Source of the DNA: Escherichia coli
GTDB lineage: Bacteria; Pseudomonadota; Gammaproteobacteria; Enterobacterales; Enterobacteriaceae
Length of the DNA stretch: 64,000 nucleotides
Reading direction: 5' to 3' (one strand)
NCBI RefSeq assembly: GCF_051903065.1
Contig: NZ_CP178438.1
The first letter of the stretch is position 1; each line of letters starts with the position of its first letter. Under the pieces are notes generated by a model. It saw nothing but the letters and a program-made list of their open reading frames with translations. It searched no databases and was not told where the DNA came from. Below, in pieces: positions 26,541 through 58,594 of this stretch. A program made the translations under genes and the position numbers.

Positions 26541-26546
26541 AAATTA

Positions 26547-42060: not shown

Positions 42061-42482
42061 CCTCGCGCATACAGCCGGGCAGTGACGTCATCGTCTGCGC
42101 GGAAATGGACGAACAGTGGGGCTATGTCGGGGCTAAATCGCGCCAGCGCTGGCTGTTTTACGCGTATGACAGGCTCCGGAAGACGGTTGTTGCGCACGTA
42201 TTCGGTGAACGCACTATGGCGACGCTGGGGCGTCTTATGAGCCTGCTGTCACCCTTTGACGTGGTGATATGGATGACGGATGGCTGGCCGCTGTATGAAT
42301 CCCGCCTGAAGGGAAAGCTGCACGTAATCAGCAAGCGATATACGCAGCGAATTGAGCGGCATAACCTGAATCTGAGGCAGCACCTGGCACGGCTGGGACG
42401 GAAGTCGCTGTCGTTCTCAAAATCGGTGGAGCTGCATGACAAAGTCATCGGGCATTATCTGAACATAAAACACTATCAATAA
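41979..42482 (+). CDS. insB: IS1 InsB frame (transposase InsAB' made by -1 frameshift at the A-run near 42036-42041)
   Basis: 167-aa -1 frame ORF overlapping the insA 3' end; slippery ttaaaaaac motif present. Confidence 0.9.
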
Positions 42483-42497
42483 GTTGGAGTCATTACC

Positions 42498-42506
42498 GAG
42501 CAGGCA
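42498..42506. repeat. IS1 target-site duplication, right copy (GAGCAGGCA)
   Basis: Identical 9-mer to 41721-41729. Confidence 0.8.
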
Positions 42507-42865
42507 ATGGCCACCGTTTATCTAACAGTGGCCATTTGATTTGAGGAAATGATGAAACATTATTCAGAAAATTAATTTAAAAAAACCATTCCTTAAGTCA
42601 AATATATATAAACGCCGAATAGCGATTAAATCCTTCTCAAAGAATGCACTGATAACATTGTGTTATTTTTATTGCCTCATTTTTCTCACTCACTTATAGT
42701 TGGTCCCTGCTGGCAGTAATTTAGTCATTTCAGAGATTTTTACTCTGATGTGCACTTACTGACTTATCTCACAAGTAATTTTTTCTCTAAATAAAGAATA
42801 GTGATGCCAGCAATTACAGTTAAAACTTGCTTTACTCGTAAAAACAATACTTTAATGGGGTTCTA

Positions 42866-43255
42866 ATGAGACATTACATGAAATGGTTTGCGGCTATTGC
42901 TGTTGTGGGTGCTTTAGCGGGTTGCGCGCGTACTGCGCCAATTGATCAGGTTCACTCAACCGTCAGCGCTGGTCATACCCAGGAACAAGTGAAAAAAGCG
43001 ATTCTGAAAGCTGGCGTTGAACGCAAATGGATTATGTCCGAAGCCGGACAAGGCATAATTAAAGCACGTCAACAGTCACGCGATCATTCAGCGGAAATAC
43101 GCATTAACTACACGGCATCCAGCTACGATATCAATTATGAAAATAGCCAGAACCTTCAAGCGTCAGGCGGACAAATTCATAAAAACTACAATCGCTGGGT
43201 CCGCAATCTCGACAAAGATATTCAACTGAATTTGTCAGCGGGCGCAGATTTATAA
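42866..43255 (+). CDS. small lipoprotein (first gene of the polyene-type cluster)
   Basis: 129 aa, signal peptide with lipobox MKWFAAIAVVGALAGC; alternative start ATG 42878. Confidence 0.75.
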   Translation: MRHYMKWFAAIAVVGALAGCARTAPIDQVHSTVSAGHTQEQVKKAILKAGVERKWIMSEAGQGIIKARQQSRDHSAEIRINYTASSYDINYENSQNLQASGGQIHKNYNRWVRNLDKDIQLNLSAGADL

Positions 43256-43314
43256 TTCCTCCTAAAGTCGGGCCGTTGCGGTCCGATAATAATTTAATTC
43301 CCTCTTAACAGGTT

Positions 43315-44382
43315 GTGCCCAACATGTACGAACAGGATTCTCTTAGCGCACTGGATGCGATTACCGAAGCTCAACGCATTGCCTTTGCCCCTATGCTTTT
43401 TCAAACAGCACTCTGCCTACGTAATGCGGGTGTACTTTCATATCTGGATCGGCAAGGCAAACATGGCGCAACGCTGGCTGATATCACCGAACATAGCCAT
43501 ATCAACGAATATGCTGCCAGCGTTCTGTTAGATATGGGCTTAAGCGGGCGAATTATTACCTGTAAAGAGGGAATTTATTACCTGGCGAAAATCGGTCATT
43601 ACCTCCTGCATGACACTATGACTCGCGTGAATATGGATTTCACCCAGGATGTCTGTTACCAGGGGCTCTTCTTCCTCGCCGATTCACTCAATGAAGGAAA
43701 ACCTTCCGGGTTAAAAGTATTTGGCGACTGGTCGACGATATATCCGGCACTTTCGCAATTACCAGACGCCGCTCGTGAAAGCTGGTTTGCGTTTGATCAT
43801 TACTATTCAGATGGCGCATTTAACGCCGCACTGCCTTATGTATTCGCCAACAACCCCACAACATTGTACGATGTAGGCGGCAATACGGGTAAGTGGGCTT
43901 TGCGTTGCTGCAAATACAATGAAAACATCGCCGTGACGTTATTAGATCTGCCACAACAAATCGTACTAGCGAAAGAAAATATCGCGAATGCAGGTTTTTC
44001 TGATCGCATAGATTTCCATGCGGTGGATATGCTAAGCGATGCCCCATTACCGGGCGAGGCTGATATCTGGTGGATGAGCCAATTTTTAGACTGTTTTTCA
44101 CCCGAACAAATAATTAGCATACTCAGCAAAATTGCCAGCGTAATGAAGCCTGGCGCAAAAGTTTGCATCATGGAGTTGTTCTGGGATGCGCAGCGGTTTG
44201 AAGCAGCATCGTTTAGCCTGAACGCGTCCTCACTTTATTTTACCTGCATGGCAAACGGTAACAGCCGTTTCTATAGTGCAGAGAAATTTTACGACTATCT
44301 GAATAAAGCAGGATTCCAGGTAGCAGAGCGCCACGATAATTTAGGCGTTGGGCATACACTTTTGATATGCCAAAAGAAATAA
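43315..44382 (+). CDS. class I SAM-dependent (O-)methyltransferase
   Basis: 355 aa; SAM-binding motif LYDVGGNTGKWAL; GTG start at 43315, alternative ATG at 43324. Confidence 0.8.
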   Translation: MPNMYEQDSLSALDAITEAQRIAFAPMLFQTALCLRNAGVLSYLDRQGKHGATLADITEHSHINEYAASVLLDMGLSGRIITCKEGIYYLAKIGHYLLHDTMTRVNMDFTQDVCYQGLFFLADSLNEGKPSGLKVFGDWSTIYPALSQLPDAARESWFAFDHYYSDGAFNAALPYVFANNPTTLYDVGGNTGKWALRCCKYNENIAVTLLDLPQQIVLAKENIANAGFSDRIDFHAVDMLSDAPLPGEADIWWMSQFLDCFSPEQIISILSKIASVMKPGAKVCIMELFWDAQRFEAASFSLNASSLYFTCMANGNSRFYSAEKFYDYLNKAGFQVAERHDNLGVGHTLLICQKK

Positions 44383-44422
44383 TCGTCACTTAATAATTTT
44401 GGTTTACCGCGGGCGCGCGTTG

Positions 44423-45145
44423 ATGAAATTTACATTAAATATTACCGACTGGCAGGCACTGGCGCCTGGACTTAGCGAAGCGCAGCAATGGCAAGCATGG
44501 TCGCGCCAGCCGTGGGCGATTGACCCTGCCGCGCCGTTGGCAAAATTAAGTGAACTGCCAATGATGACCGCCCGCCGCCTCAGTTCAGGCAGCAAACTGG
44601 CTGTTGAATGCGGTCTGGCAATGCTACGCCGCCATCAGCCAGACGCCGTTTTGTATACCAGTCGTCATGGCGAACTGGAGCGCAATTACCGCATTGTTCA
44701 TGCACTGGCAACCGAACAGGCGCTTTCTCCGACCGACTTCGCGCTCTCCGTACACAACTCTTCCGTGGGTAACCTGACCATTGCGGCCAAACAGCCGATC
44801 GTTTCGTCATCGCTTTCGGCTGGTCGCGACACTTTCCAGCAAGGTTTGTGTGAAGTGCTTAGCCTGTTACAAGCGGGATACCAGCGCGTGCTGATGGTCG
44901 ATTTTGACGGTTTCCTGCCCGAGTTTTATCACCCACAACTGCCATCAGAAATGCCGACCTGGCCGTACGCCGTCGCGCTGGTGATTGAAGCTGGCGATGA
45001 GTGGCAATGTGAAACGCAGTCAGCCATTGCGGGCAATGAAACAACACTGCCGCAAAGCATGTTGTTTTTACAGCACTATTTACAAAATGTAGACACATTT
45101 TCACTGCCTGGCGAGCGCGTGCAATGGCGCTGGAGCCACAGATGA
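44423..45145 (+). CDS. ketosynthase-like protein lacking the active-site Cys (chain-length-factor-like KS partner)
   Basis: ORF 44399..45145 (TTG in track); ATG at 44423 gives MKFTLNITDWQALAPG...; about 240 aa, thiolase-like N-terminal half without a C-x-S-S catalytic motif. Confidence 0.7.
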   Translation: MKFTLNITDWQALAPGLSEAQQWQAWSRQPWAIDPAAPLAKLSELPMMTARRLSSGSKLAVECGLAMLRRHQPDAVLYTSRHGELERNYRIVHALATEQALSPTDFALSVHNSSVGNLTIAAKQPIVSSSLSAGRDTFQQGLCEVLSLLQAGYQRVLMVDFDGFLPEFYHPQLPSEMPTWPYAVALVIEAGDEWQCETQSAIAGNETTLPQSMLFLQHYLQNVDTFSLPGERVQWRWSHR

Positions 45146-45963
45146 GTAAGCTGATGTCACGTCTGGAGTGGACCTGGCGACTGGTCATGACCGGGTTATG
45201 TTTTGCCCTGTTTGGTCTCGGCGGCCTGCTGCTTTCTGTCGTGTGGTTTAACATATTGTTAGTTTTGGTGTGGGATACTTCCCGCCGCCGTCGTTTGGCG
45301 CGTCGCAGCATTGCCGCCAGTTTTCGCCTGTTTTTAACTGTCGCGAAAGGGCTTGGCGTGCTGGATTATCGTATTGATGGCGCTGAAATTTTACGTCAGG
45401 AACGCGGTTGCCTCGTCGTAGCCAATCATCCCACGCTGATCGATTACGTGCTGCTGGCGTCAGTCATGCCAGAAACTGACTGCCTGGTGAAAAGCGCACT
45501 GTTAAAAAATCCTTTTCTTGGCGGCGTCGTGCGGGCGGCAGATTATTTAATCAACAGCGAAGCTGAAACCCTGTTACCCCGCTGCCAACAGCGACTGGCA
45601 CAGGGTGACACTATCCTGATTTTCCCCGAAGGCACACGAACGAAGCCCGGTGAAAAAATGACGCTGCAGCGCGGGGCGGCGAATATTGCCGTGCGCTGCG
45701 CCAGCGATTTACGCATCGTGACAATCGGCTGTAGCGAGCATCTGCTGGATAAACAAAGTAAATGGTATGACGTTCCACCTGACCGGCCGTTTTTTACGGT
45801 TGCAGTCCATGGTCGGGTTGAAATCAATAAATTTTACGATGCAACTTCACAAGAACCGGCGCTGGCAGCAAGGCAGTTAAACCGGCATCTTTTGCTTCAA
45901 TTACAACAAGGTTGTTTACCTCTCTCAGGAATAAATAATGCAAGCGCTTTATCTGGAAATTAA
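45142..45963 (+). CDS. PlsC-type (lysophospholipid) acyltransferase
   Basis: ORF 45124..45963; start at ATG 45142 forms an ATGA overlap with the upstream stop; motifs NHPTLIDYVLL (H-x4-D) and IFPEGTRT. Confidence 0.8.
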   Translation: MSKLMSRLEWTWRLVMTGLCFALFGLGGLLLSVVWFNILLVLVWDTSRRRRLARRSIAASFRLFLTVAKGLGVLDYRIDGAEILRQERGCLVVANHPTLIDYVLLASVMPETDCLVKSALLKNPFLGGVVRAADYLINSEAETLLPRCQQRLAQGDTILIFPEGTRTKPGEKMTLQRGAANIAVRCASDLRIVTIGCSEHLLDKQSKWYDVPPDRPFFTVAVHGRVEINKFYDATSQEPALAARQLNRHLLLQLQQGCLPLSGINNASALSGN

Positions 45964-46195
45964 AAACCTCATCATCAGCACCCTCAATCTGGACGAGTTG
46001 ACGCCTGATGATATCGATACCGACGCGCCGCTGTTTGGCGACGGTTTAGGGCTGGACTCTATCGATGCCCTGGAACTGGGACTGGCAGTAAAAAATGAGT
46101 ACGGCATCGTGCTCTCTGCGGAAAGCGAAGAGATGCGTCAGCACTTTTTCTCCGTCGCCACTCTGGCCTCTTTCATTGCTGCGCAACGTGCCTGA
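45938..46195 (+). CDS. acyl carrier protein 1
   Basis: 85 aa; phosphopantetheine-attachment motif GLGLDSIDALELG; SD agga 7 nt upstream. Confidence 0.88.
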   Translation: MQALYLEIKNLIISTLNLDELTPDDIDTDAPLFGDGLGLDSIDALELGLAVKNEYGIVLSAESEEMRQHFFSVATLASFIAAQRA

Positions 46196-46206
46196 GGAAA
46201 GCCATC

Positions 46207-46458
46207 ATGACAGAACAACAAACCGTCTATCAGGAAGTCTCAGCCCTGCTGGTTAAGCTGTTTGAAATCGATCCGCAGGACATCAAACCTGAAGCGCGCC
46301 TGTACGAAGATCTGGAACTGGACAGCATCGACGCCGTTGACATGATTGTGCACCTGCAAAAGAAAACCGGTAAGAAAATCAAGCCGGAAGAGTTTAAAGC
46401 AGTGCGTACAGTCCAGGATGTCGTCGAGGCTGTAGAACGCCTGCTACAAGAAGCCTGA
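46207..46458 (+). CDS. acyl carrier protein 2
   Basis: 83 aa; motif DLELDSIDAVDMI; SD gagga upstream. Confidence 0.88.
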   Translation: MTEQQTVYQEVSALLVKLFEIDPQDIKPEARLYEDLELDSIDAVDMIVHLQKKTGKKIKPEEFKAVRTVQDVVEAVERLLQEA

Positions 46459-46462
46459 TCTG

Positions 46463-47044
46463 ATGTCGGGCATTCGCTCGCTACCGATGATTAAGCTGCT
46501 GACTGGATTATTGCTGCTCGCCTGGCCGTTTGTGATTTGGTTTGGCTTAGCGCATAACGGCCTGCACTGGCTGTTACCGCTAATGGCGTTGCTGCTTTTG
46601 TTGCGTCTGCGCCAGACCCGTCGCCAGGCGGGGCCTTTACAAGCCGTCACGCAACTCGTCGCTGTCGTGGGCATCGCATTATGTGTCGCCAGCTTTATGT
46701 TGAAAACGCACCAGCTACTGCTGTTTTACCCGGTAGTGGTTAACGCGGTCATGCTGGCGGTTTTTGGCGGTTCGCTGTGGTCGGCAATGCCGATAGTTGA
46801 GCGGCTGGCGCGGTTGCAGGAGCCAGACCTCCCGGAAAAGGGCGTGCGCTATACCCGCCACGTCACGCAAATCTGGTGCGGCTTTTTCATCATTAACGGT
46901 GGAATTGCCCTCTTTACCGCGCTTTATGCCGATATGTCGTTATGGACCGCCTGGAACGGCATGATTGCTTATTTGTTGATGGGGACGTTAATGGCTGGTG
47001 AATGGCTGGTGCGCCGCCAGGTTATGAAAAGAGATCGCGCATGA
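46463..47044 (+). CDS. hypothetical integral membrane protein
   Basis: 193 aa, about 4-5 hydrophobic helices (LLTGLLLLAWPFVIWFGLAH...). Confidence 0.7.
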   Translation: MSGIRSLPMIKLLTGLLLLAWPFVIWFGLAHNGLHWLLPLMALLLLLRLRQTRRQAGPLQAVTQLVAVVGIALCVASFMLKTHQLLLFYPVVVNAVMLAVFGGSLWSAMPIVERLARLQEPDLPEKGVRYTRHVTQIWCGFFIINGGIALFTALYADMSLWTAWNGMIAYLLMGTLMAGEWLVRRQVMKRDRA

Positions 47045-48402
47045 AGCAGACCTTACCGCTTGCACGCTGGCTGACTGCGCCACGCCCTGATGACACACCC
47101 ATTGCGTGGCTGAACGAAAGTACCTGGACGCTGGGCGATTTGCGTCACGATGTCGCGCAACTTATCTGCCGCTTGCAGCAACAGCCGGGTGAACGCTGGG
47201 CGCTGTGCTTTGAGAACAGCTATCTGTTTATCGTTGCCCTGCTCGCCACGCTACACGCCGGAAAAACGCCGGTGCTTCCGGGGCATAACCGTGTTATCCA
47301 GCTTAACGAGCAACGTGAACTTTTTGATGGTGTGCTTAGCGACAGCGAACTTAACTGGCAAGGTTCATTGCTGTTGGTAGCAAGTTCCCCACAAGTCGCG
47401 ACACAATCCTTCACCTTTGCCGCTATAGCGCCAGAGGCTTATATCGAGCTGTTTACCTCCGGTTCCACGGGACAGCCGAAACGGGTGATTAAACCTGTTC
47501 ATTTGCTGGACCGTGAAGCAGAACTGCTGGCTGAACGATTAGGCGCACGTCTGGCGGATTGTCGTGTCATCGGTTCCGTATTGCCGCAGCATTTGTACGG
47601 CCTGACTTTTCGCGTTTTCCTGCCCATGGCGCTGGGATTACCCCTACATGCCGCCATGCTCTGGTATGTCGAACAGTTTGCCGCGTTGAGTCATCAGCAT
47701 CGCTATATCTTCATCAGCAGCCCGGCATTTTTGAAGCGTCTGGATACACAGCTTTCCCCACCGCCCGTTCAGGTGCTTCTCTCTGCTGGCGGTGAGCTAC
47801 CGTGGCAGGATGTACAACACACCGCGAGCTGGCTGCGCGTCTGGCCTGATGAAATCTACGGCAGCACGGAAACCGGCGTCATCGCCTGGCGCTACCGCGA
47901 ACAAGAGCAACGCCGCTGGCTACCCCTCCCAGGTATGCAGTTCCAGGCCGAAGGCGATGCCTTTCGCCTCTTTTCACCGCTGATAGCGGAAGATAACGGC
48001 CTGTTACTCGACGATATCTTACAGTTTAGCGAAGATGGTCAGTTCCATCTGATGGGGCGTCGTGGGCGCATCGTTAAGATTGAAGAAAAACGTATTTCAC
48101 TCCAGGAAGTAGAACAACGTCTACTGGCGCTGGACGGCATTCGCGAGGCGGCGGCAGTTCCCGTTACGCGCGGCGGGCGTCAGAGCATAGGCGTTTTGCT
48201 GGTGCTGGATGACGAAGCTCATCTGCAATGGCAGAACGGCGGCGGGCATAGCCAGGAAATGACCTGGCGGCGTTTACTGCGCCCGACGCTGGAGCCAGTT
48301 GCTATTCCGCGTTACTGGCGCGTTATTGATGAAATGCCAGTAAACAGTATGAACAAGCGTGTCTATGCGCAATTACAGGAGTTATTTCATGAAGCCCCAT
48401 GA
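47041..48402 (+). CDS. adenylate-forming enzyme (AMP-dependent synthetase/ligase; probable starter-acid:ACP ligase)
   Basis: ORF 47002..48402; start at ATG 47041 (ATGA overlap with upstream stop); AMP-binding motifs FTSGSTGQPKRV and YGSTETG. Confidence 0.82.
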   Translation: MKQTLPLARWLTAPRPDDTPIAWLNESTWTLGDLRHDVAQLICRLQQQPGERWALCFENSYLFIVALLATLHAGKTPVLPGHNRVIQLNEQRELFDGVLSDSELNWQGSLLLVASSPQVATQSFTFAAIAPEAYIELFTSGSTGQPKRVIKPVHLLDREAELLAERLGARLADCRVIGSVLPQHLYGLTFRVFLPMALGLPLHAAMLWYVEQFAALSHQHRYIFISSPAFLKRLDTQLSPPPVQVLLSAGGELPWQDVQHTASWLRVWPDEIYGSTETGVIAWRYREQEQRRWLPLPGMQFQAEGDAFRLFSPLIAEDNGLLLDDILQFSEDGQFHLMGRRGRIVKIEEKRISLQEVEQRLLALDGIREAAAVPVTRGGRQSIGVLLVLDDEAHLQWQNGGGHSQEMTWRRLLRPTLEPVAIPRYWRVIDEMPVNSMNKRVYAQLQELFHEAP

Positions 48403-48742
48403 AATCGAGCGCCATCAGGCACAAACGAATCACCTTGAAATTGTTCTGCATCTCAGGGCGGATCTGTTCTGGTTTCGCGGTCATTTTGCCGTGCAACCAT
48501 TACTCCCAGGAGTTGCGCAAATCGATTGGGCGATGAGCTACGCGCTCAATCTGCTCGCGCCTGGCTGGCGTTTTCACTCCATTCAGAACATAAAATTCCA
48601 GTCTCCGTTGCTGCCGGAAAACCGCGTCACGCTCGCGCTTAACTGGCAGGAAGAACGCCAGATTCTGAGCTTTAGCTATCAGCGTCACGACGGTGACGCC
48701 CGCCACACCGCCAGTAGCGGGAAGATACGCCTATGTCGGTAA
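48389..48742 (+). CDS. FabZ/FabA-like hotdog-fold 3-hydroxyacyl-ACP dehydratase
   Basis: ORF 48359..48742; start ATG 48389 with SD aggag 8 nt upstream; motif FRGHFAVQPLLPGVAQIDWAM resembles FabZ GHFP..P..PGVL..EA.AQ. Confidence 0.78.
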   Translation: MKPHEIERHQAQTNHLEIVLHLRADLFWFRGHFAVQPLLPGVAQIDWAMSYALNLLAPGWRFHSIQNIKFQSPLLPENRVTLALNWQEERQILSFSYQRHDGDARHTASSGKIRLCR

Positions 48743-50409
48743 ACTTTTCTCCCTGCGTGTTGATCCCCTGCTACAACCACGGCGCGATGATGCCGGGCGT
48801 GCTGGCGCGTCTTAAGCCATTTAATCTGCCCTGTATTGTGGTGGACGACGGCAGCGATGCCGCCACGCAACAGCAACTGGACAGTCTGCTTGCCGAACAG
48901 CCTGGCGTGACCTTAATCCGCCTGGCAGAAAACGCAGGCAAAGGCGCGGCAGTGATGCGTGGCTTACAGGCAGCGGCAGACGCAGGGTTCAGCCATGCGG
49001 TGCAGGTGGATGCTGACGGTCAACATGCGATTGAAGATATCCCCAAACTGCTGGCACTCGCTGAACAACACCCTGCGGCGCTGATCTCCGGCCAGCCAAT
49101 TTACGATGACTCCATCCCCCGCTCACGGCTTTACGGGCGCTGGGTCACCCACGTCTGGGTATGGATCGAAACGCTCTCCCTGCAACTGAAAGACAGCATG
49201 TGCGGCTTTCGCGTTTATCCGGTTGCGCCAACGCTGCAACTGGCAAAACACGCCACCATCGGCAAGCGGATGGATTTCGACACTGAAGTGATGGTGCGCC
49301 TCTACTGGCAGGGAAACACCAGCTATTTCGTGCCGACCCGCGTCACCTATCCACTGGACGGGCTTTCGCATTTTGATGCCCTGAAAGATAACGTCCGCAT
49401 CTCGCTCATGCACACGCGTCTGTTTTTCGGCATGTTGCCGCGTATTCCTTCACTACTGATGCGCCGCTCTTCCAGCCACTGGGCGCGGCAGAGTGAAGTG
49501 AAAGGATTATGGGGAATGCGCCTGATGCTGCTGGTCTGGCGTCTGCTGGGAAGAACGGCGTTTAGCGCGCTGCTTTACCCGGTGGTGGGCGTCTACTGGC
49601 TCACTGCTGCTCGTGCGCGCAAAGCGTCGCAAGACTGGCTCGCCCGTGTACGACAGCATCAACCACAGGCGGCAAAACTCAACAGCTATCAGCACTTTCT
49701 ACGTTTCGGTAATGCCATGCTCGACAAAATCGCCAGCTGGCGCGGCGAGCTACAACTGGGGCACGATGTGCTGTTTGCGCCAGGCGCAGAAGCGGCGCTT
49801 GACGTCAGCGATCCGCGCGGCAAATTGCTGCTGGCCTCGCATCTTGGCGATGTGGAAGTGTGCCGGGCGCTGGCAAAAATTCAGGGCTACAAAACCATTA
49901 ACGCGCTGGTGTTTAGCGAAAACGCCCAACGCTTTAAACAGATAATGCAGGAGATGGCTCCTCAGGCAGGTATTAACCTGATGCCGGTAACAGATATCGG
50001 CCCGGAAACCGCCATCCTGCTGAAAGAGAAGCTGGATAACGGCGAATGGGTGGCGATTGTCGGTGACCGCATCGCCGTCACCCCGCAACGCGGCGGCGAC
50101 TGGCGCGTCTGCTGGAGTCCGTTTATGGGCCAGCCTGCGCCCTTCCCACAGGGGCCGTTTATTCTCGCGTCTATTTTGCGCTGCCCGGTGAATCTGATTT
50201 TCGCCCTGCGCCAGCGCGGCAAGCTGCATATTCACTGCGAAACCTTTGCCGACCCGCTGCTGTTGCCGCGTGGCGAACGCCAACAGGCGCTGCAAAACGC
50301 TATCGACCACTACGCCGCGCGTCTGGAACATTACGCGCTCCAGTCGCCCCTCGACTGGTTTAATTTTTTCGATTTCTGGCAACTGCCGGAAATTCAGGAC
50401 AAGGAGTAA
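48733..50409 (+). CDS. two-domain protein: N-terminal GT2-family glycosyltransferase plus C-terminal domain of uncertain (possibly acyltransferase-like) function
   Basis: 558 aa; GT-A motifs VLIPCYNHG, VVDDGSDA, QVDADGQH in the first about 250 aa; C-terminal half not confidently assigned by eye. Confidence 0.75.
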   Translation: MSVNFSPCVLIPCYNHGAMMPGVLARLKPFNLPCIVVDDGSDAATQQQLDSLLAEQPGVTLIRLAENAGKGAAVMRGLQAAADAGFSHAVQVDADGQHAIEDIPKLLALAEQHPAALISGQPIYDDSIPRSRLYGRWVTHVWVWIETLSLQLKDSMCGFRVYPVAPTLQLAKHATIGKRMDFDTEVMVRLYWQGNTSYFVPTRVTYPLDGLSHFDALKDNVRISLMHTRLFFGMLPRIPSLLMRRSSSHWARQSEVKGLWGMRLMLLVWRLLGRTAFSALLYPVVGVYWLTAARARKASQDWLARVRQHQPQAAKLNSYQHFLRFGNAMLDKIASWRGELQLGHDVLFAPGAEAALDVSDPRGKLLLASHLGDVEVCRALAKIQGYKTINALVFSENAQRFKQIMQEMAPQAGINLMPVTDIGPETAILLKEKLDNGEWVAIVGDRIAVTPQRGGDWRVCWSPFMGQPAPFPQGPFILASILRCPVNLIFALRQRGKLHIHCETFADPLLLPRGERQQALQNAIDHYAARLEHYALQSPLDWFNFFDFWQLPEIQDKE

Positions 50410-50412
50410 AGG

Positions 50413-50835
50413 GTGCTTAACGATCCCCGATTTACCGCTGAAGTCGAGCTGACCATTCCCTTTCACGACGTCGATATGATGGGCGTGGCCTGGCACGGTA
50501 ACTATTTTCGCTACTTTGAAGTGGCCCGCGAGGCGCTGCTCAACCAGTTCAATTACGGCTATCGGCAGATGAAAGAGTCCGGTTATTTGTGGCCAGTGGT
50601 CGATGCGCGGGTGAAATATCGCCACGCTCTCACCTTTGAGCAACGCATCCGCGTGCGTGCGCATATCGAAGAGTTCGAAAACCGTCTGCGGATTGGCTAT
50701 CAGATTTTCGATGCCGAAACGGGCAAACGCGCCACCACCGGATACACCATTCAGGTCGCGGTCGACGAGCAAAGCCGCGAACTGTGCTTTGTCAGCCCCG
50801 ATATTCTGTTTGAACGCATGGGAGTCAAACCATGA
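50413..50835 (+). CDS. hotdog-fold acyl-(ACP/CoA) thioesterase (4HBT-like)
   Basis: 140 aa; GTG start 50413 with SD aaggag 6 nt upstream; MLNDPRFTAEVELTIPFHDVDMMGVAWHGNYFRYFE... typical 4HBT/YbgC-like N-terminus. Confidence 0.75.
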   Translation: MLNDPRFTAEVELTIPFHDVDMMGVAWHGNYFRYFEVAREALLNQFNYGYRQMKESGYLWPVVDARVKYRHALTFEQRIRVRAHIEEFENRLRIGYQIFDAETGKRATTGYTIQVAVDEQSRELCFVSPDILFERMGVKP

Positions 50836-51437
50836 AATTTTTACCGCTGCTGGCGCTGCTGATTAGCCCGTTTGTGAGCGCCCTGACCCTGGACGATCTT
50901 CAACAACGTTTTACCGAACAGCCGGTGATCCGCGCCCATTTCGATCAAACCCGGACGATTAAAGATCTGCCGCAGCCGCTGCGATCTCAGGGCCAGATGT
51001 TGATCGCCCGCGACCAGGGGTTATTGTGGGATCAAACCTCACCGTTCCCCATGCAACTATTACTGGACGATAAACGCATGGTGCAGGTGATCAACGGTCA
51101 GCCGCCGCAAATCATCACGGCAGAAAATAACCCGCAGATGTTCCAGTTTAACCACCTGCTGCGCGCGCTGTTCCAGGCCGATCGCAAAGTGCTGGAACAA
51201 AACTTCCGCGTCGAATTTGCCGACAAAGGCGAAGGCCGCTGGACGCTGCGCCTGATGCCGACCACCACGCCACTGGATAAAATTTTCAACACCATCGATC
51301 TCGCCGGGCAAACCTATCTGGAGAGCATTCAGCTTAATGATAAACAGGGCGATCGCACCGATATTGCTCTTACCCAACATCAACTGACACCAGCGCAACT
51401 GACCGATGACGAACGCCAACGTTTTGCCGCCCAGTAA
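50832..51437 (+). CDS. LolA-like outer-membrane lipoprotein carrier family protein
   Basis: 201 aa with signal peptide MKFLPLLALLISPFVSA; ATGA overlap with upstream gene. Confidence 0.72.
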   Translation: MKFLPLLALLISPFVSALTLDDLQQRFTEQPVIRAHFDQTRTIKDLPQPLRSQGQMLIARDQGLLWDQTSPFPMQLLLDDKRMVQVINGQPPQIITAENNPQMFQFNHLLRALFQADRKVLEQNFRVEFADKGEGRWTLRLMPTTTPLDKIFNTIDLAGQTYLESIQLNDKQGDRTDIALTQHQLTPAQLTDDERQRFAAQ

Positions 51438-53724
51438 ACGCCCCGCGCTGTTATGGGGGCTAGTCTGCCTGGTCATGGCGGCGGCGTTGCTGATCCTGCT
51501 GCCGCAATCACGGCTGAACAGTAGCGTGCTGGCTATGTTACCCAAACAGGCGATGGGCGATATTCCCCCAGCGCTGAATGACGGCTTTATGCAGCGTCTG
51601 GACCGCCAACTGGTGTGGCTGGTCAGCCCCGGTAAAGAGGCTAATCCCAGGGTCGCTCAGGAGTGGCTGACGCAGCTGCAAAAATCCGCTGCGCTTGGCG
51701 ACATTAAAGGGCCAATGGATGCCGCCAGCCAGCAGGCGTGGGGAGCGTTTTTCTGGCAGCACCGCAACGGCCTGATTGACCACGACACCCGCGCCCGCCT
51801 GCAAAACGGCGGCGAAGCGCAGGCGCAGTGGATCCTCTCCCAGCTTTATTCTGCATTCTCCGGGGTAAGCGGCAAGGAGCTGCAAAACGATCCGCTGATG
51901 TTAATGCGCGGCTCGCAGCTGGCGATGGCAAAAAATGGCCAGCGTTTGCGGCTGATGGACGGCTGGCTGGTGACGCAGGATCCCCAGGGCAACTACTGGT
52001 ATCTGCTGCACGGCGAACTGGCGGGATCGTCGTTTGATATGCAGCAAACCCACCAGCTCATCACGACCCTGAATACGCTGGAAAAGGATCTGAAAACGCG
52101 TTACCCACAGGCGCAGTTGCTCTCGCGCGGCACGGTATTTTACAGCGATTACGCCAGTCAACAGGCGAAGCAGGATATCTCAACCCTGGGCGTGGCAACG
52201 CTGCTGGGGGTGATATTGCTGATTGTGGCGGTGTTCCGCTCTTTGCGCCCGTTGCTGCTTTGCGTGATTTCCATCGGCATCGGCGCGCTGGCGGGAACGG
52301 TCGCCACTTTATTGATTTTCGGTGAATTACACCTGATGACGCTGGTGATGAGCATGAGCGTTATCGGCATTTCCGCTGACTACACGCTCTATTATCTCAC
52401 CGAGCGGATGGTTCACGGCAACGACGTTTCGCCGTGGCAAAGCCTGGCGAAAGTACGCAATGCCTTGCTACTGGCGCTGCTCACCACCGTGGCGGCGTAT
52501 CTGATTATGATGCTCGCCCCCTTCCCCGGCATTCGCCAGATGGCGATTTTTGCCGCCGTCGGGTTGAGCGCCTCCTGTCTGACCGTCCTGTTCTGGCATC
52601 CGTGGCTGTGCCGTGGCCTGCCGGTGCGTCCGGTTCCGGCGATGGCGCTGATGCTACGCTGGCTGGCAGCGTGGCGGCGTAATAAAAAACTGTCGCTGGG
52701 TCTGCCCGTCGCGCTGGCGCTGTTTTCGCTGGCGGGGATGTCAATGCTACGCGTCGATGACGATATCTCGCAGTTACAGGCGCTACCGCAGCATATTCTG
52801 GCGCAGGAAAAAGCCATTACCGCCCTGACCAGGCAGAGCGTCGATCAAAAATGGTTTGTGGTTTACGGCGATTCGCCACAGCAAACATTGCGGCGACTGG
52901 AGAAATATACCGCCTCACTTGAGTATGCGAAAAAAGAGGGGCTTATCAGCAACTACCGCACCATTCCGCTGAACTCCCTTGCGCGGCAGGAGGAAGATTT
53001 ACAACTGCTGAAAACGGCGGCCCCGACAGTAACAAAAGCGCTGCAAAATGCCGGGCTGACGGCAGTGAACCCGGATCTCAACGCCATGCCAGTGAACGTT
53101 GATGAATGGCTGGCAAGCCCCGCCAGTGAAGGCTGGCGTCTGCTGTGGCTGACGCTGGAAAACGGCGAAAGCGGCGTACTGGTGCCGGTTGAAGGGGTTA
53201 AAAGTAGCGCGTTGATGCAGGAAATCGCCAGCTATTACCCTTGCGGCATTGCCTGGGTTGATCGCAAAAGCACCTTTGATGAATTGTTCGCACTTTACCG
53301 TTATGTCTTAACCGGCTTGTTGCTGGTGGCGCTGGCGGTGATTGCCTGCGGCGCAGTGGCCCGTCTCGGCTGGCGCAAAGGGCTTATCAGCCTGGTGCCT
53401 TCGGTGCTTTCGCTGGGCTGCGGTCTGGCGGTGCTGGCGATGAGCGGGCAGGCGGTGAATATCTTTTCGCTTCTGGCGCTGGTGCTGGTGCTTGGCATCG
53501 GCATCAATTACACGCTGTTTTTCAGTAATCCGCGCGGCACACCGTTAACTTCGCTACTGGCGATCACACTGGCAATGCTCACCACCTTGCTGACGCTGGG
53601 AATGTTGGTATTCAGCGCCACCCAGGCCATCAGCAGTTTTGGCATTGTGCTGGTGAGCGGTATTTTCACCGCCTTCCTGCTTTCGCCGCTGGCTATGCCC
53701 GATAAAAAGAGAACAAAAAAATGA
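51406..53724 (+). CDS. MMPL/RND-superfamily exporter
   Basis: 772 aa, two clusters of TM helices separated by soluble loops; 32-nt overlap with upstream gene. Confidence 0.8.
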   Translation: MTNANVLPPSKRPALLWGLVCLVMAAALLILLPQSRLNSSVLAMLPKQAMGDIPPALNDGFMQRLDRQLVWLVSPGKEANPRVAQEWLTQLQKSAALGDIKGPMDAASQQAWGAFFWQHRNGLIDHDTRARLQNGGEAQAQWILSQLYSAFSGVSGKELQNDPLMLMRGSQLAMAKNGQRLRLMDGWLVTQDPQGNYWYLLHGELAGSSFDMQQTHQLITTLNTLEKDLKTRYPQAQLLSRGTVFYSDYASQQAKQDISTLGVATLLGVILLIVAVFRSLRPLLLCVISIGIGALAGTVATLLIFGELHLMTLVMSMSVIGISADYTLYYLTERMVHGNDVSPWQSLAKVRNALLLALLTTVAAYLIMMLAPFPGIRQMAIFAAVGLSASCLTVLFWHPWLCRGLPVRPVPAMALMLRWLAAWRRNKKLSLGLPVALALFSLAGMSMLRVDDDISQLQALPQHILAQEKAITALTRQSVDQKWFVVYGDSPQQTLRRLEKYTASLEYAKKEGLISNYRTIPLNSLARQEEDLQLLKTAAPTVTKALQNAGLTAVNPDLNAMPVNVDEWLASPASEGWRLLWLTLENGESGVLVPVEGVKSSALMQEIASYYPCGIAWVDRKSTFDELFALYRYVLTGLLLVALAVIACGAVARLGWRKGLISLVPSVLSLGCGLAVLAMSGQAVNIFSLLALVLVLGIGINYTLFFSNPRGTPLTSLLAITLAMLTTLLTLGMLVFSATQAISSFGIVLVSGIFTAFLLSPLAMPDKKRTKK

Positions 53725-54305
53725 TCAAATCCACATTCTGGCGAGCGTTCGCCCTGACCGCTACGCTTATCCTCACCGGCTGTAGCCACTCGCAACCAGA
53801 ACAGGAAGGCCGCCCGCAGGCGTGGCTGCAACCTGGCACGCGCATCACGCTGCCGGCACCAGGGATTTCACCCGCAGTCAATTCGCAGCAACTGTTGACC
53901 GGCAGCTTCAACGGCAAAACCCAGTCGCTGCTAGTAATGCTTAACGCCGACGACCAGAAAATCACCCTTGCCGGGCTGTCGTCGGTCGGCATTCGCCTGT
54001 TTCTGGTGACCTACGATGCAAAAGGGCTACGCGCCGAGCAATCCATCGTCGTCCCGCAGTTGCCGCCCGCAAGTCAGGTGCTGGCTGACGTAATGCTCAG
54101 CCACTGGCCGATTAGCGCCTGGCAACCGCAACTTCCCGCAGGATGGACACTTCGCGACAACGGTGACAAACGCGAGCTGCGTAACGCCAGCGGCAAACTG
54201 GTCACGGAAATCACCTATCTGAATCGCCAGGGAAAACGCGTGCCAATCAGCATTGAGCAGCATGTCTTTAAATACCACATCACCATTCAATACTTAGGTG
54301 ACTGA
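53721..54305 (+). CDS. lipoprotein of unknown function (DUF3261-like)
   Basis: 194 aa, lipobox LILTGC after signal peptide; ATGA overlap with MMPL gene. Confidence 0.72.
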   Translation: MIKSTFWRAFALTATLILTGCSHSQPEQEGRPQAWLQPGTRITLPAPGISPAVNSQQLLTGSFNGKTQSLLVMLNADDQKITLAGLSSVGIRLFLVTYDAKGLRAEQSIVVPQLPPASQVLADVMLSHWPISAWQPQLPAGWTLRDNGDKRELRNASGKLVTEITYLNRQGKRVPISIEQHVFKYHITIQYLGD

Positions 54306-54306
54306 T

Positions 54307-55476
54307 ATGATTTATATTTCCGCCGTCGGCATGATCAACGCCCTGGGAAATAACCTTGACGAAATCGCAGCCAACCTGGCTCGCGGTGTCGCCCCCGGAA
54401 TGCGCCCACGCGCAGGCTGGTTGCAGGGGCATCCGCAGGCGGTCCTGGCTGGCGTGGATGGCGAGCTTCCGCTTATCCCGGAAAAATTCGCTGCGCATCG
54501 CTCGCGCAACAATCAGATCCTGCTGGCGGCGCTGGCGCAGCTCCAGCCGCAGGTTGATGACACTATAGCGAAATATGGTCGCGAGCGCATCGCGATTGTA
54601 CTTGGCACCAGCACCTCCGGCCTGCATGAAGGCGACACGCACGTTAACCTGCGCACCCACGGGCAGCCGAGCACCACATGGCATTACGCGCAACAGGAAC
54701 TCGGCGATCCGTCGCGTTTTCTCAGCCACTGGCTGGCGCTCGACGGCCCGGCTTATACCCTTTCAACCGCCTGCTCCTCCAGCGCCAGAGCGATGATCAG
54801 CGGGCGCAGGCTTATCGAGGCGGGGCTGGTCGATGCCGCCATTGTGGGTGGCGCAGACACCCTGAGCCGGATGCCGATTAACGGTTTTCACAGCCTCGAA
54901 TCGCTGTCGCCAACCTTATGTCAGCCGTTCGGTCGTGACCGCGCAGGTATCACCATTGGTGAAGGGGCGGGGCTAATGCTGCTGACCCGCGAACCGCAGC
55001 CCATCGCATTGCTGGGCGTTGGTGAATCGAGCGACGCTTACCATATTTCAGCTCCGCATCCGCAGGGCGAAGGAGCGATCCGCGCTATTAATCAGGCGCT
55101 GACCGATGCGCAGCTTACGCCGGATGACGTCGGCTATATCAACCTGCACGGCACCGCCACACAGCTCAACGACCAGATTGAATCAATGGTGGTTAACGCC
55201 CTGTTTGGCGAACGCGTACCGTGCAGCTCCACCAAACATTTGACCGGACACACGCTGGGCGCAGCGGGCATTACCGAGGCGGCAATTAGTATGTTGATTT
55301 TACAGCGTGATTTACCGCTGCCCGCTCAGGACTTCAGCCTGTCGCCGCGCGATCCCACGCTGCCACCGTGTGGCATTATCGAAAAACCGCAGCCGCTGGC
55401 ACGTCCGGTGATCCTGTCCAATTCCTTCGCCTTTGGCGGCAATAACGCCAGCATTCTGCTCGGGAGGGTTTCGTGA
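54307..55476 (+). CDS. beta-ketoacyl-ACP synthase (catalytically competent KS)
   Basis: ORF 54298..55476 (GTG); ATG 54307 has SD taggtga 7 nt upstream; catalytic triad motifs STACSSS, HGTAT, GHTLGAAG. Confidence 0.85.
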   Translation: MIYISAVGMINALGNNLDEIAANLARGVAPGMRPRAGWLQGHPQAVLAGVDGELPLIPEKFAAHRSRNNQILLAALAQLQPQVDDTIAKYGRERIAIVLGTSTSGLHEGDTHVNLRTHGQPSTTWHYAQQELGDPSRFLSHWLALDGPAYTLSTACSSSARAMISGRRLIEAGLVDAAIVGGADTLSRMPINGFHSLESLSPTLCQPFGRDRAGITIGEGAGLMLLTREPQPIALLGVGESSDAYHISAPHPQGEGAIRAINQALTDAQLTPDDVGYINLHGTATQLNDQIESMVVNALFGERVPCSSTKHLTGHTLGAAGITEAAISMLILQRDLPLPAQDFSLSPRDPTLPPCGIIEKPQPLARPVILSNSFAFGGNNASILLGRVS

Positions 55477-55937
55477 GCCACTATTTATCCCCCGGTGCTT
55501 ATCTGCCCCACGACGCGCCCATGTTACTGCTGGAAGACGTGGTGAGCGTCAGCGATGACAGCGCGGTGTGCCGCGTGACGGTTTCGCCCAGTGGCGTACT
55601 GGCACCGTTTCTCGACCCGGACGGCAATCTCCCCGGCTGGTTTACCCTTGAACTGATGGCGCAAACCGTCGGCGTCTGGTCTGGCTGGCATCGCCACCAG
55701 CAGGGCAAAAACAGTATTGAGTTAGGGATGATACTGGGCGCGCGTGAATTGCTTTGCACCACTGGCATTCTGCCCGCAGGCCAGACGCTGACCATTACCG
55801 TCAAACTGCTGATGCAAGACGATCGCTTCGGCAGTTTTGAGTGCAGCATCAACGACGGCGAGGCAACGGGCCGCATTAACACCTTCCAGCCGACCGCGGA
55901 AGAACTTACCACCCTGTTTCAACAAGGAGCGTCCTGA
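55473..55937 (+). CDS. FabA-like hotdog-fold dehydratase
   Basis: 154 aa; GTG start overlapping upstream stop (GTGA) with SD ggagg; hotdog-length protein with no other recognisable catalytic motifs. Confidence 0.7.
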   Translation: MSHYLSPGAYLPHDAPMLLLEDVVSVSDDSAVCRVTVSPSGVLAPFLDPDGNLPGWFTLELMAQTVGVWSGWHRHQQGKNSIELGMILGARELLCTTGILPAGQTLTITVKLLMQDDRFGSFECSINDGEATGRINTFQPTAEELTTLFQQGAS

Positions 55938-56668
55938 TGAGTCGTTCAGTTCTGGTTACTGGTGCCAGCAAAGGCATTGGTCGCGCCATCGCCTGCCAAC
56001 TGGCGGCAGACGGCTTTAACATTGGCGTTCACTATCACCGTGACGCCACAGGCGCTCAGGAAACGCTGAATGCCATTGTCGCCAATGGGGGTAACGGGCG
56101 TTTGCTCAGTTTCGACGTCGCAAACCGCGAACAGTGTCGGGAAGTGCTGGAGCATGAGATCGCGCAACACGGTGCCTGGTACGGCGTGGTCAGTAACGCC
56201 GGGATCGCCCGCGATGCCGCTTTTCCGGCTTTAAGCGATGACGACTGGGATGCGGTGATCCACACCAACCTCGACAGTTTCTACAACGTCATTCAGCCGT
56301 GCATTATGCCGATGATCGGCGCACGCCAGGGTGGGCGCATCATCACGCTATCCTCGGTTTCCGGCGTAATGGGCAATCGCGGCCAGGTGAATTACAGCGC
56401 TGCCAAAGCCGGAATTATCGGCGCAACAAAAGCGCTGGCTATCGAACTCGCGAAGCGCAAAATCACCGTCAACTGCATCGCGCCGGGGCTTATTGATACC
56501 GGGATGATCGAAATGGAAGAGAGCGCTCTGAAAGAGGCAATGTCGATGATCCCCATGAAACGTATGGGCCAGGCGGAAGAAGTTGCCGGGCTTGCCAGTT
56601 ATTTAATGTCTGATATTGCGGGTTACGTCACCCGCCAAGTTATTTCCATCAACGGAGGGATGTTATGA
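55937..56668 (+). CDS. 3-oxoacyl-ACP reductase (SDR, FabG-like)
   Basis: 243 aa; VLVTGASKGIGRAIA cofactor motif, catalytic NYSAAKAG (YxxxK). Confidence 0.88.
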   Translation: MSRSVLVTGASKGIGRAIACQLAADGFNIGVHYHRDATGAQETLNAIVANGGNGRLLSFDVANREQCREVLEHEIAQHGAWYGVVSNAGIARDAAFPALSDDDWDAVIHTNLDSFYNVIQPCIMPMIGARQGGRIITLSSVSGVMGNRGQVNYSAAKAGIIGATKALAIELAKRKITVNCIAPGLIDTGMIEMEESALKEAMSMIPMKRMGQAEEVAGLASYLMSDIAGYVTRQVISINGGML

Positions 56669-57894
56669 CACGTCGCGTAGTGATTACAGGAATGGGCGGC
56701 GTGACTGCCTTTGGTGAAAACTGGCAGGACGTTTCTGCACGCTTACTGGCGTATGAAAATGCGGTGCGCAAAATGCCGGAGTGGCAGGTCTACGACGGGC
56801 TGCACACCCTGCTTGGCGCGCCTGTTGATGATTTCACGCTACCGGAGCACTACACCCGCAAGCGTATCCGTGCGATGGGCCGCGTGTCGCAAATGTCGAC
56901 CCGTGCCAGCGAGCTGGCGTTAGAGCAGGCAGGGTTGATTGGCGATCCGATATTAACCAGCGGCGAAACGGGCATTGCGTACGGTTCATCGACCGGCAGT
57001 ACCGGCCCGGTAAGCGAGTTCGCCACCATGCTGACGGAAAAGCACACCAATAACATCACTGGCACCACCTATGTGCAGATGATGCCGCACACCACCGCCG
57101 TTAATACTGGCCTCTTTTTCGGCCTGCGCGGGCGGGTGATCCCAACCTCCAGCGCCTGTACTTCCGGCAGCCAGGCAATCGGTTATGCGTGGGAAGCCAT
57201 TCGCCACGGTTATCAAACGGTGATGGTTGCTGGTGGTGCCGAAGAGTTATGTCCTTCAGAAGCAGCGGTATTTGATACGCTTTTCGCCACCAGCCAGCAC
57301 AATGATGCGCCGAAAACCACACCTTCACCGTTCGATGAAAACCGCGACGGGCTGGTGATTGGTGAAGGCGCAGGTACGCTCATTCTCGAAGAACTGGAAC
57401 ACGCCAAAGCGCGCGGCGCGACCATTTACGGTGAAATCGTCGGCTTTGCGACGAACTGCGACGCGGCACATATTACCCAGCCGCAGCGCGAAACCATGCA
57501 GTATTGTATGGAGCAATCGCTGAAAATCGCCGGGTTAAGCGCACAAGATATCGGCTATATTTCAGCGCATGGTACGGCGACCGATCGCGGTGATATGGCA
57601 GAAAGTCTGGCGACAGCAACCATTTACGGTGATAATGTGCCGCTCTCCTCGCTGAAAAGTTATTTTGGTCATACGCTTGGTGCCTGTGGCGCGCTCGAAG
57701 CCTGGATGAGTCTGCAAATGATGCGCGAAGGTTGGTTTGCGCCTACGCTAAACCTGAATAAACCAGACCCGAATTGTGGCGCGCTGGATTACATCATGCA
57801 TGAAGCCCGCAAGGTTGATTGTGAGTTTTTACAGAGTAACAACTTTGCCTTTGGCGGCATTAATACATCCATCATCATTAAACGTTGGCCCTGA
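56665..57894 (+). CDS. beta-ketoacyl-ACP synthase II-like (FabF/FabB family)
   Basis: 409 aa; SSACTSGS, SAHGTATDRGD, GHTLGACG motifs; ATGA overlap with reductase gene. Confidence 0.88.
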   Translation: MTRRVVITGMGGVTAFGENWQDVSARLLAYENAVRKMPEWQVYDGLHTLLGAPVDDFTLPEHYTRKRIRAMGRVSQMSTRASELALEQAGLIGDPILTSGETGIAYGSSTGSTGPVSEFATMLTEKHTNNITGTTYVQMMPHTTAVNTGLFFGLRGRVIPTSSACTSGSQAIGYAWEAIRHGYQTVMVAGGAEELCPSEAAVFDTLFATSQHNDAPKTTPSPFDENRDGLVIGEGAGTLILEELEHAKARGATIYGEIVGFATNCDAAHITQPQRETMQYCMEQSLKIAGLSAQDIGYISAHGTATDRGDMAESLATATIYGDNVPLSSLKSYFGHTLGACGALEAWMSLQMMREGWFAPTLNLNKPDPNCGALDYIMHEARKVDCEFLQSNNFAFGGINTSIIIKRWP

Positions 57895-57895
57895 T

Positions 57896-58483
57896 ATGTA
57901 TCGGATAGTTCTGGGGAAAGTTTCGACCTTAAGCGCAGCTCCACTGCCACCGGGTTTACGCGAGCAAGCACCGCAAGGTCCACGACGCGAACGCTGGCTG
58001 GCGGGGCGTGCATTGCTTTCGCACACGCTTTCCCCGCTACCGGAGATCATCTATGGCGAACAAGGCAAACCTGCATTTGCGCCGGAAACGCCGCTATGGT
58101 TCAACTTAAGCCATAGCGGTGACGATATCGCCCTGCTGTTGAGTGATGAAGGCGAAGTCGGCTGCGATATCGAAGTGATTCGCCCGCGCGCCAACTGGCG
58201 CTGGCTGGCGAACGCCGTGTTCAGCCTCGGGGAACACGCTGAAATGGACGCCGTGCATCCTGATCAGCAACTGGAAATGTTCTGGCGCATCTGGACGCGC
58301 AAAGAAGCCATCGTTAAACAGCGTGGCGGCAGCGCCTGGCAAATCGTCAGCGTAGACAGCACCTATCACTCCTCGCTGTCAGTCAGCCATTGTCAGCTAG
58401 AAAATTTAAGCCTTGCGATCTGCACCCCCACCCCCTTTACGCTCACCGCCGACAGTGTGCAATGGATCGATTCAGTTAACTGA
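57896..58483 (+). CDS. acpT: holo-ACP synthase-type 4'-phosphopantetheinyl transferase AcpT
   Basis: ORF 57776..58483; 195-aa form from MYRIVLGKVSTLSAAPLPPGLREQ... begins 1 nt after the KS stop; PPTase core (FNLSHSGD..., WTRKEAIVK). Confidence 0.9.
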   Translation: MYRIVLGKVSTLSAAPLPPGLREQAPQGPRRERWLAGRALLSHTLSPLPEIIYGEQGKPAFAPETPLWFNLSHSGDDIALLLSDEGEVGCDIEVIRPRANWRWLANAVFSLGEHAEMDAVHPDQQLEMFWRIWTRKEAIVKQRGGSAWQIVSVDSTYHSSLSVSHCQLENLSLAICTPTPFTLTADSVQWIDSVN

Positions 58484-58529
58484 TCCCGCCCACCCGACTG
58501 CCCATCTATTGATCCAGAACAGGTAATCA

Positions 58530-58557
58530 GTATGACGAATACTTAAAATCGTCATAC
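58530..58557 (+). promoter_or_regulatory. NikR operator in the nikA promoter
   Basis: GTATGA-N16-TCATAC dyad (gtatgacgaatacttaaaatcgtcatac) about 40 bp upstream of nikA start. Confidence 0.8.
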
Positions 58558-58594
58558 TTATTTCCGCCATCTATTTTAATCCATTGGGGTTACC

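Follow-up and report, generated by a model that had tools for sequence, protein, structure and literature searches.

An Escherichia coli locus matching the known aryl polyene cluster, with acpT adjoining

The locus

The window analysed here (the whole stretch of DNA, 64 kb) was part of an Escherichia coli chromosome reaching from glgB to nikR and was 100% identical to NZ_AP045789.1 (strain 23CRST027). Its central part carried 19 genes between yhhT (40660–41709) and nikA (58595 onward), all on the plus strand, which were called from the RefSeq annotation of the identical record NZ_AP045789.1 together with the list of open reading frames (ORFs) and assigned to families by NCBIfam, Pfam and PDB searches. 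The first 18, apeA–apeR, were co-directional and occupied 42878–57894; acpT (57896–58483) followed 1 nt after the apeR stop codon. The interval 42878–57894 is very probably the known aryl polyene (APE) cluster of E. coli, with the activating gene acpT adjoining, because it is gene-for-gene colinear with the APE_Ec cluster of strain CFT073, which has been expressed and mutagenised experimentally.

G+C content rose from about 42–46% at the 5' edge to 55–60% in the cluster body. Among the 18 junctions within the row of 19 genes, 6 were 4-nt ATGA/GTGA overlaps, 5 were other overlaps of 1–32 nt and 5 were gaps of 1–11 nt; only two were wider, apeA–apeB (68 nt) and apeB–apeC (40 nt). An earlier note on this DNA had described 18 genes ending in acpT, mostly joined by ATGA/GTGA overlaps: the end at acpT, the shared direction and the tight packing were real, the count came to 19 (18 ape genes and acpT), and 'mostly' was too strong for 6 of 18 junctions. 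The note's start at 42866 proved to be an upstream in-frame ATG, which is the start used in the CFT073 annotation, whereas apeA begins at 42878 in RefSeq.

Comparison with known clusters

The CFT073 region used for comparison (NC_004431.1, positions 1143727–1158748; APE_Ec of Cimermancic et al. 2014 and Johnston et al. 2021, PMC8253772) contained 18 genes in the same order and on the same strand. Nucleotide identity to the window was 96.4% over 48288–57894 and 90.3% over 43130–47291. Protein lengths were equal except for ApeA (125 amino acids (aa) here and 129 in CFT073, where the start is annotated differently) and ApeH (453 and 452 aa). ApeB–ApeF were 94–97% and ApeJ–ApeR 96–100% identical at the aa level, and the ratio of nonsynonymous to synonymous divergence (dN/dS) was 0.01–0.29 for those genes in which it could be computed. 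The two clusters differed in location, that of CFT073 lying beside dgcT/pgaA on an island that carries an integrase, with no acpT adjoining, and that of the window between yhhT and acpT; an IS1 element upstream of the cluster was likewise a feature of the window, unlike CFT073. In CFT073, apeA–apeR correspond to c1204–c1186; heterologous expression of the cluster gave a yellow aryl polyene pigment, and deletion mutants lost the pigment (PMC8253772). The aryl polyene reading of the earlier note was thus supported by colinearity with a pigment-producing cluster.

O-island 138 of O157:H7 shared with the window both the locus (yhhT–ape–acpT–nikA) and the allele class. Its proteins were 95–100% identical (AcpT and ApeE 100%, ApeF 98.8%, and ApeC, the most divergent, 95%), nucleotide differences amounted to a few percent and IS1 was absent. 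Compared with O157:H7, all 19 reading frames of the window were full length, with no frameshifts or stops.

The ape cluster of Xenorhabdus doucetiae, reportedly described by Grammbitter et al. in 2019, has the apeA–apeR names and the enzyme set in common with the window; it comes from another genus and sequence identity was much lower, yet ApeO, ApeC, ApeI and ApeP of the window matched its solved proteins with E values of 1e-39 to 1e-174. Xenorhabdus and CFT073 share one chromophore, a 4-hydroxy-3-methylphenyl hexaene, and the final lipid, determined only in Xenorhabdus, is N-acetylgalactosamine (GalNAc)-phosphoglycerol carrying the hexaene and a C26:5 conjugated acyl chain (bioRxiv 10.1101/2020.12.19.423268).

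Gene content

Two competent ketosynthases (KSs) were present, both with Cys/His/His motifs and both above the cutoffs of Ape-type subfamilies. The elongating KS ApeO (54307–55476; motifs TACSSS, YHISAPH and LHGTAT) reached 554 bits with NF006618 (cutoff 407) and matched PDB 6QSP chain A at E 7.5e-174, and also 7F28 chain B. The initiating KS ApeR (56665–57894; motifs SSACTSG, AHITQP and AHGTAT) reached 778 bits with NF006587 (cutoff 470) and matched 4EWG (E 1e-164) and 7F27, the Acinetobacter baumannii ApeR (E 5e-158). ApeC (44423–45145, 240 aa), the KS-like chain length factor and ApeO partner, was named 'beta-ketoacyl synthase chain length factor' by RefSeq and matched Pfam PF13723 (E 1e-66) and 6QSP chain B, which is X. 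doucetiae ApeC (E 1e-91). An Asn stood in ApeC at the position of the catalytic Cys of ApeO; the alignment behind this placement was weak (BLASTP of ApeC against ApeO was not significant) and was complemented by the 6QSP match. Entries 6QSP and 7F28 are ApeO:ApeC structures and 7F27 is an ApeR structure (PMC8358021).

Two acyl carrier proteins (ACPs) with DSI motifs were encoded, ApeE (45938–46195; NF006617, 90.8 bits, cutoff 70) and ApeF (46207–46458; NF003757, 146 bits, cutoff 65). The 3-ketoacyl-ACP reductase ApeQ (55937–56668) belonged to FabG2 (TIGR01831, 476 bits, cutoff 339; PDB 4IIU, E 1e-154). The hotdog dehydratase subunits ApeI (48389–48742) and ApeP (55473–55937) matched chains A (E 7e-39) and B (E 7e-47) of PDB 6QSR from X. 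doucetiae; ApeI also had a weak FabZ match, and ApeP is called 'ApeP family dehydratase' by RefSeq in other records. Starter loading was assigned to ApeH (47041–48402), a predicted adenylate-forming aryl-ACP ligase whose best NCBIfam match was 4-coumarate-CoA ligase (E 1e-24, far below the cutoff). A protein search found more than 1100 ApeH homologues across Enterobacterales, and a PDB search found no solved relative at E < 1e-10. ApeB (43324–44382) was an S-adenosylmethionine (SAM)-dependent methyltransferase (FlxJ-family model of NCBIfam, E 3e-142, 474 bits, under the 560-bit cutoff) with a published role in methylation of the aryl ring (PMC8253772; bioRxiv 10.1101/2020.12.19.423268).

The set for lipid attachment and export was present as apeD, apeJ, apeL, apeM and apeN. 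ApeD (45142–45963) was a lysophospholipid (PlsC-type) acyltransferase (TIGR00530 AGP_acyltrn domain, E 3e-15; LPLAT family in RefSeq). In ApeJ (48733–50409, 558 aa) an N-terminal GT2 glycosyltransferase domain was matched by Pfam PF00535 over residues 8–131 only, and the last 300 aa drew no Pfam match. A search with the last 319 aa found homologues of 46–52% identity that contain PF03279 and bear the names LpxL/LpxP or LPLAT acyltransferase, so the second half is read from this homology as an LpxL/LPLAT-type acyltransferase, matching the label 'glycosyl/acyltransferase' in the literature; an HX4E-like motif, SHLGDVE, was visible in the ApeJ sequence. ApeL (50832–51437) was a LolA-like periplasmic carrier (TIGR00547 lolA, E 5e-16; flexirubin LolA2, E 7e-15), ApeM (51406–53724) an MMPL/RND-family transporter (matches to HAE3, HpnN and MMPL; 'MMPL family transporter' in RefSeq) and ApeN (53721–54305) a LolB-like DUF3261 lipoprotein (Pfam PF11659, E 7e-39; lipobox LTGC).

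The remaining products were ApeK (50413–50835), a YbgC/4HBT-type thioesterase (TIGR00051, E 1e-16) identical in CFT073 and O157:H7; ApeA (42878–43255, alternative start 42866), a small lipoprotein (RefSeq 'lipoprotein') with lipobox LAGC in its translation, 100% identical to the O157:H7 protein; ApeG (46463–47044), a 'COG4648 family protein' of RefSeq and integral membrane protein, for which no significant Pfam or NCBIfam match was found; and AcpT, the 4'-phosphopantetheinyl transferase (NF007676, 396 bits, cutoff 174). The inventory of the earlier note held for every item it listed in the NCBIfam, Pfam and PDB searches, and had passed over apeG and one of the two lipoproteins (apeA or apeN). 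FabG2, both KSs, both ACPs and AcpT all scored over the cutoffs of equivalog-level NCBIfam models. The core set used to call ape clusters was complete and intact (apeO, apeR, apeC, apeE/F, apeI/P, apeQ and apeM), the published rule naming KS, chain length factor, ACPs, dehydratases, ketoreductase and transporter (bioRxiv 10.1101/2020.12.19.423268).

As many of these products match families of type II fatty acid synthesis (FabF, FabG, FabZ and ACP) and lipid acyltransferases, and O-island 138 genes were formerly annotated as 'unknown' or 'putative acyltransferase' (PMC2907692), the locus could in principle be an ordinary fatty acid synthase paralogue or act in modifying lipid A or phospholipids rather than in making pigment. 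This was considered extremely improbable. The near-identical CFT073 cluster yields aryl polyene on expression and its deletion mutants lose pigment (PMC8253772), the gene set includes a chain length factor, a ring methyltransferase and a dedicated adenylating enzyme of putative aryl-acid type, and the top structural matches were Ape proteins, well ahead of FabF and FabB. No FabI, FabK or FabV-type enoyl reductase family match was found among the 19 products, although host FabI may act in trans. A housekeeping type II fatty acid synthase was rejected on the same absence and on the scores, FabF models giving 210 and 353 bits against a cutoff of 494 and two FabZ models 22–26 bits against cutoffs of 113 and 155; the best models were Ape-type subfamilies and FabG2.

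The flexirubin clusters of Bacteroidota and the xanthomonadin clusters of Xanthomonas have aryl polyene chemistry and a type II polyketide/fatty acid synthase-like core in common with the APE cluster. Weak to moderate matches were obtained to the FlxJ methyltransferase, FlxB reductase and flexirubin LolA2 models, all below the curated cutoffs. No tyrosine ammonia-lyase, DarA/DarB dialkylresorcinol genes, halogenase or XanB2-type chorismatase was encoded according to RefSeq annotation and NCBIfam. A flexirubin-type cluster was rejected, as a lyase was missing and the only DarB match, that of ApeR, reached 22 bits (cutoff 550).

Proposed pathway

Published roles place ApeR at initiation, ApeO:ApeC at elongation, ApeQ at reduction, ApeI/ApeP at dehydration and ApeB at ring methylation, with ApeD and ApeJ in lipid attachment and ApeL, ApeM and ApeN in export (PMC8253772). 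By analogy, AcpT would first turn ApeE and ApeF into holo-carrier proteins. Modification by AcpT was shown in vitro for the O157:H7 carriers (De Lay & Cronan 2006, as cited in PMC8253772); in the window acpT adjoins the cluster and the carriers are 98.8–100% identical to those proteins, the modification itself being taken from the literature. ApeH would then adenylate 4-hydroxybenzoate made by UbiC and load it directly on an ACP, as shown for the Xenorhabdus orthologue. In line with the earlier note, which had seen no ammonia-lyase and expected the starter, for example 4-hydroxybenzoate, from elsewhere, no ammonia-lyase was found among the 19 products, and the starter proposed for this lyase-free cluster is 4-hydroxybenzoate from chorismate via UbiC, loaded by ApeH (PMC8253772).

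The first condensation with malonyl-ACP would be carried out by ApeR and elongation by the ApeO:ApeC heterodimer. Keto groups would be reduced by ApeQ and dehydrated by ApeI:ApeP, with a conjugated hexaene as the expected product because no enoyl reductase is encoded, and ApeB would methylate the ring. The APE-lipid structure of Xenorhabdus suggests that release of the polyene and its attachment to a GalNAc-phosphoglycerol lipid would fall to ApeK, ApeD and the bifunctional ApeJ; ApeG, ApeL, ApeM, ApeN and perhaps ApeA would then bring this lipid to the outer membrane. There, the product of the CFT073 cluster quenches reactive oxygen species and promotes biofilm (PMC8253772).

Several points weigh against the identification as a pigment-producing APE cluster. 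The pigment structure has been determined only for CFT073 and Xenorhabdus, and what the literature says of the export route and of the functions of ApeA, ApeG and ApeK is at the stage of a proposal. Four proteins are less similar to those of CFT073 than the rest, namely ApeA (64% aa identity), ApeH (66%), ApeI (72%) and ApeG (81%). The cluster may also be poorly expressed: O-island 138 transcripts in O157:H7 were modest and rose 2–6 fold in an rpoS mutant (PMC2907692), and the Xenorhabdus cluster was silent in the laboratory (bioRxiv 10.1101/2020.12.19.423268).

Upstream region and regulatory scans

By comparison with O157:H7, a complete inserted IS1 (RefSeq IS1A transposase) was located at 41730–42497 on the plus strand, outside the cluster. 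It was flanked by a 9-bp target duplication, GAGCAGGCA, at 41721–41729 and 42498–42506, and lay 20 nt past the yhhT stop codon and before the yhhT terminator. Of 5426 complete E. coli genomes (the set used for all genome counts below), just two, which were sister isolates from Ecuador, had this junction. The displaced yhhT terminator hairpin (42507–42536; −17.7 kcal/mol, z −3.0) opened the region upstream of apeA (42507–42877, plus strand), which was AT-rich (41–46% G+C) and is presumed to be the promoter region.

With IS1 between yhhT and the cluster, and with APE clusters being weakly expressed in laboratory conditions, a cluster that is functionally silent or decaying in the source strain, for example as a result of the insertion, had to be weighed. 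It was thought very improbable, since IS1 sits before the yhhT terminator hairpin, 380 bp upstream of apeA, the 371 bp that run from just past its duplication up to apeA share 99.7% identity with O157:H7, and the 19 full-length reading frames are 95–100% identical to those of O157:H7.

Promoter and terminator scans stayed at chance level; one promoter-like match was obtained at 42672–42700, and such matches occurred at chance frequency. Rfam gave no match in 41000–59000. In the 68-nt apeA–apeB gap a 9-bp G+C-rich hairpin was seen at 43267–43287 (GTCGGGCCG-TTG-CGGTCCGAT, about −14 kcal/mol), followed by A/T-rich sequence, which may be an attenuator or stabiliser separating apeA from apeB–apeR. 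Between acpT and nikA the search for a terminator-like site came out negative. The acpT–nikA spacer contained a perfect inverted repeat, GTATGA-N16-TCATAC (58530–58557), an arrangement like that of the NikR operator in the nikABCDE promoter.

acpT, loss from K-12 and distribution

K-12 has acpT immediately after yhhT; its homology to the window ended at 41705 and resumed at 57876, so that the last 20 nt of apeR (inside its last six codons) were kept. These 20 nt are part of apeR, because the homologous stretch in CFT073 reaches precisely as far as the stop codon of apeR. In the cluster-free genomes sampled, the match began at the same breakpoint as in K-12. Enterobacter sp. Bisph1 had the same 18-gene order and then an acpT homologue (63% aa identity), 3 nt after apeR. 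On this sequence comparison, the 20-nt apeR scar in K-12 and the apeR–acpT order in Enterobacter show that apeR and acpT were linked ancestrally and that the cluster has been deleted from K-12; K-12 and most E. coli deleted apeA–apeR and kept acpT. The same two findings bore out the statement in the earlier note that loss of this island had left acpT orphaned in K-12. Loss of the cluster from K-12 was proposed by De Lay & Cronan 2006 (Mol Microbiol 61:232, as cited in PMC8253772).

The cluster was present in about 824 of the 5426 genomes (about 15%) and the apeR–acpT junction in 569, acpT itself being found in 5425. O157:H7 genomes held a second place of blastn match to the cluster.

A weak apeR match (85 nt, 76%) in a cluster-free E. 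coli genome belonged to an unrelated fatty acid/polyketide synthase-like island at tRNA-Ser/ycdU (NZ_CM188746.1, positions 3135206–3159290). This island of some cluster-free E. coli carried acpS, an SDR, FabZ, an ACP, an aminomethyltransferase, an 852-aa KS and a second KS, and also an ABC transporter, a lipoprotein-sorting protein and a malonyltransferase.

Two allele classes

Compared with CFT073, the window showed two old, sharply bounded replacement blocks of 57–75% nucleotide identity, the rest being mostly 94–100% identical. Block 1 (about 42497–43600) comprised the upstream region, apeA and the 5' third of apeB, and block 2 (about 46800–48700) the 3' part of apeG, apeH and apeI. In block 2, synonymous divergence (dS) was 1.7–3.4 and dN/dS 0.08–0.2. 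Window-type apeH–apeI was found in 565 genomes and the CFT073 type in 259, including Nissle 1917 and ATCC 25922. The allele classes track chromosomal location (acpT-linked as against the integrase island), since the 565 window-type genomes nearly equal the 569 with the acpT junction.

Outside Escherichia, the nearest relatives of the window ApeH were from Citrobacter and Klebsiella (73–76%), and the nearest relative of the CFT073 ApeH was from 'Enterobacteriaceae bacterium ESL0689' (87%). A search of genome contigs with ApeH returned only two loci, in Escherichia sp. E1V33 and Enterobacter sp. Bisph1, and so does not map the donors of the alleles. In an alignment of about 120 Enterobacterales ApeH homologues, the window protein kept 177 and the CFT073 protein 175 of the 180 columns that were at least 95% conserved.

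Divergence of this kind could mean that the acpT-linked class makes a chemically different product from CFT073, altered in aromatic starter, chain length or methylation. The contrast of the blocks with their backbone, the saturation of dS in apeH and apeI and the clean partition of the alleles (565 window type, 259 CFT073 type, 569 apeR–acpT junctions) speak for it, and among the E. coli allele types chemistry has been done only on that of CFT073. Nevertheless, ApeH evolves faster than any other gene of the cluster, with about 65% identity between Enterobacter ApeH and either E. coli allele; X. doucetiae ApeI is matched about as well by one ApeI allele as by the other; the more distant Xenorhabdus makes the 4-hydroxy-3-methylphenyl hexaene of CFT073; and the low dN/dS points to conserved function. 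A changed product arising from the divergent ApeH allele is unlikely on sequence grounds, because both alleles keep nearly all family-conserved residues. A chemically different product of the acpT-linked class was accordingly given very little credence, and scarcely more was given to the wider proposal that the acpT-linked form (about 565 of the 5426 genomes, including O157:H7) would give a pigment lipid differing in aryl head group, chain length or regulation.

Other features of the window

An ORF of 340 aa with a TTG start (49750–50772, minus strand), antisense to apeJ/apeK, had no family match and no RefSeq annotation and was dismissed as probably a chance ORF in G+C-rich coding DNA. Outside the cluster, a hypothetical gene of 102 aa (37093–37401, minus strand) lay in a zntA–tusA spacer of about 485 bp; the spacer in K-12 is about 100 bp and geneless, and the window version looks like a small strain-variable insertion. 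Between yhgN and gntU, overlapping genes annotated as DprA (DNA-processing protein) and a RecQ-family helicase (2509–5807, minus strand) may form an accessory or defence-type module. Known from RefSeq annotation only were an AtaT/AtaR toxin–antitoxin pair between panM and livJ (26013–26813, minus strand) and a tetratricopeptide-repeat protein gene between ugpB and livF (19508–20254, minus strand).

Significance

The cluster is already known, and its recognition here adds no new biology; it puts the source strain with the roughly 15% of E. coli that have retained the cluster, in this case beside acpT. That E. coli has two allele classes at two chromosomal locations, with chemistry on one only, is a mildly useful point, and the deletion scar together with the linkage in Enterobacter gives direct sequence support for K-12 having lost the cluster. 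Few biosynthetic gene clusters are as widespread in bacteria as APE clusters, whose pigment lipids guard Gram-negative bacteria, including pathogenic E. coli, against oxidative stress and promote biofilm.

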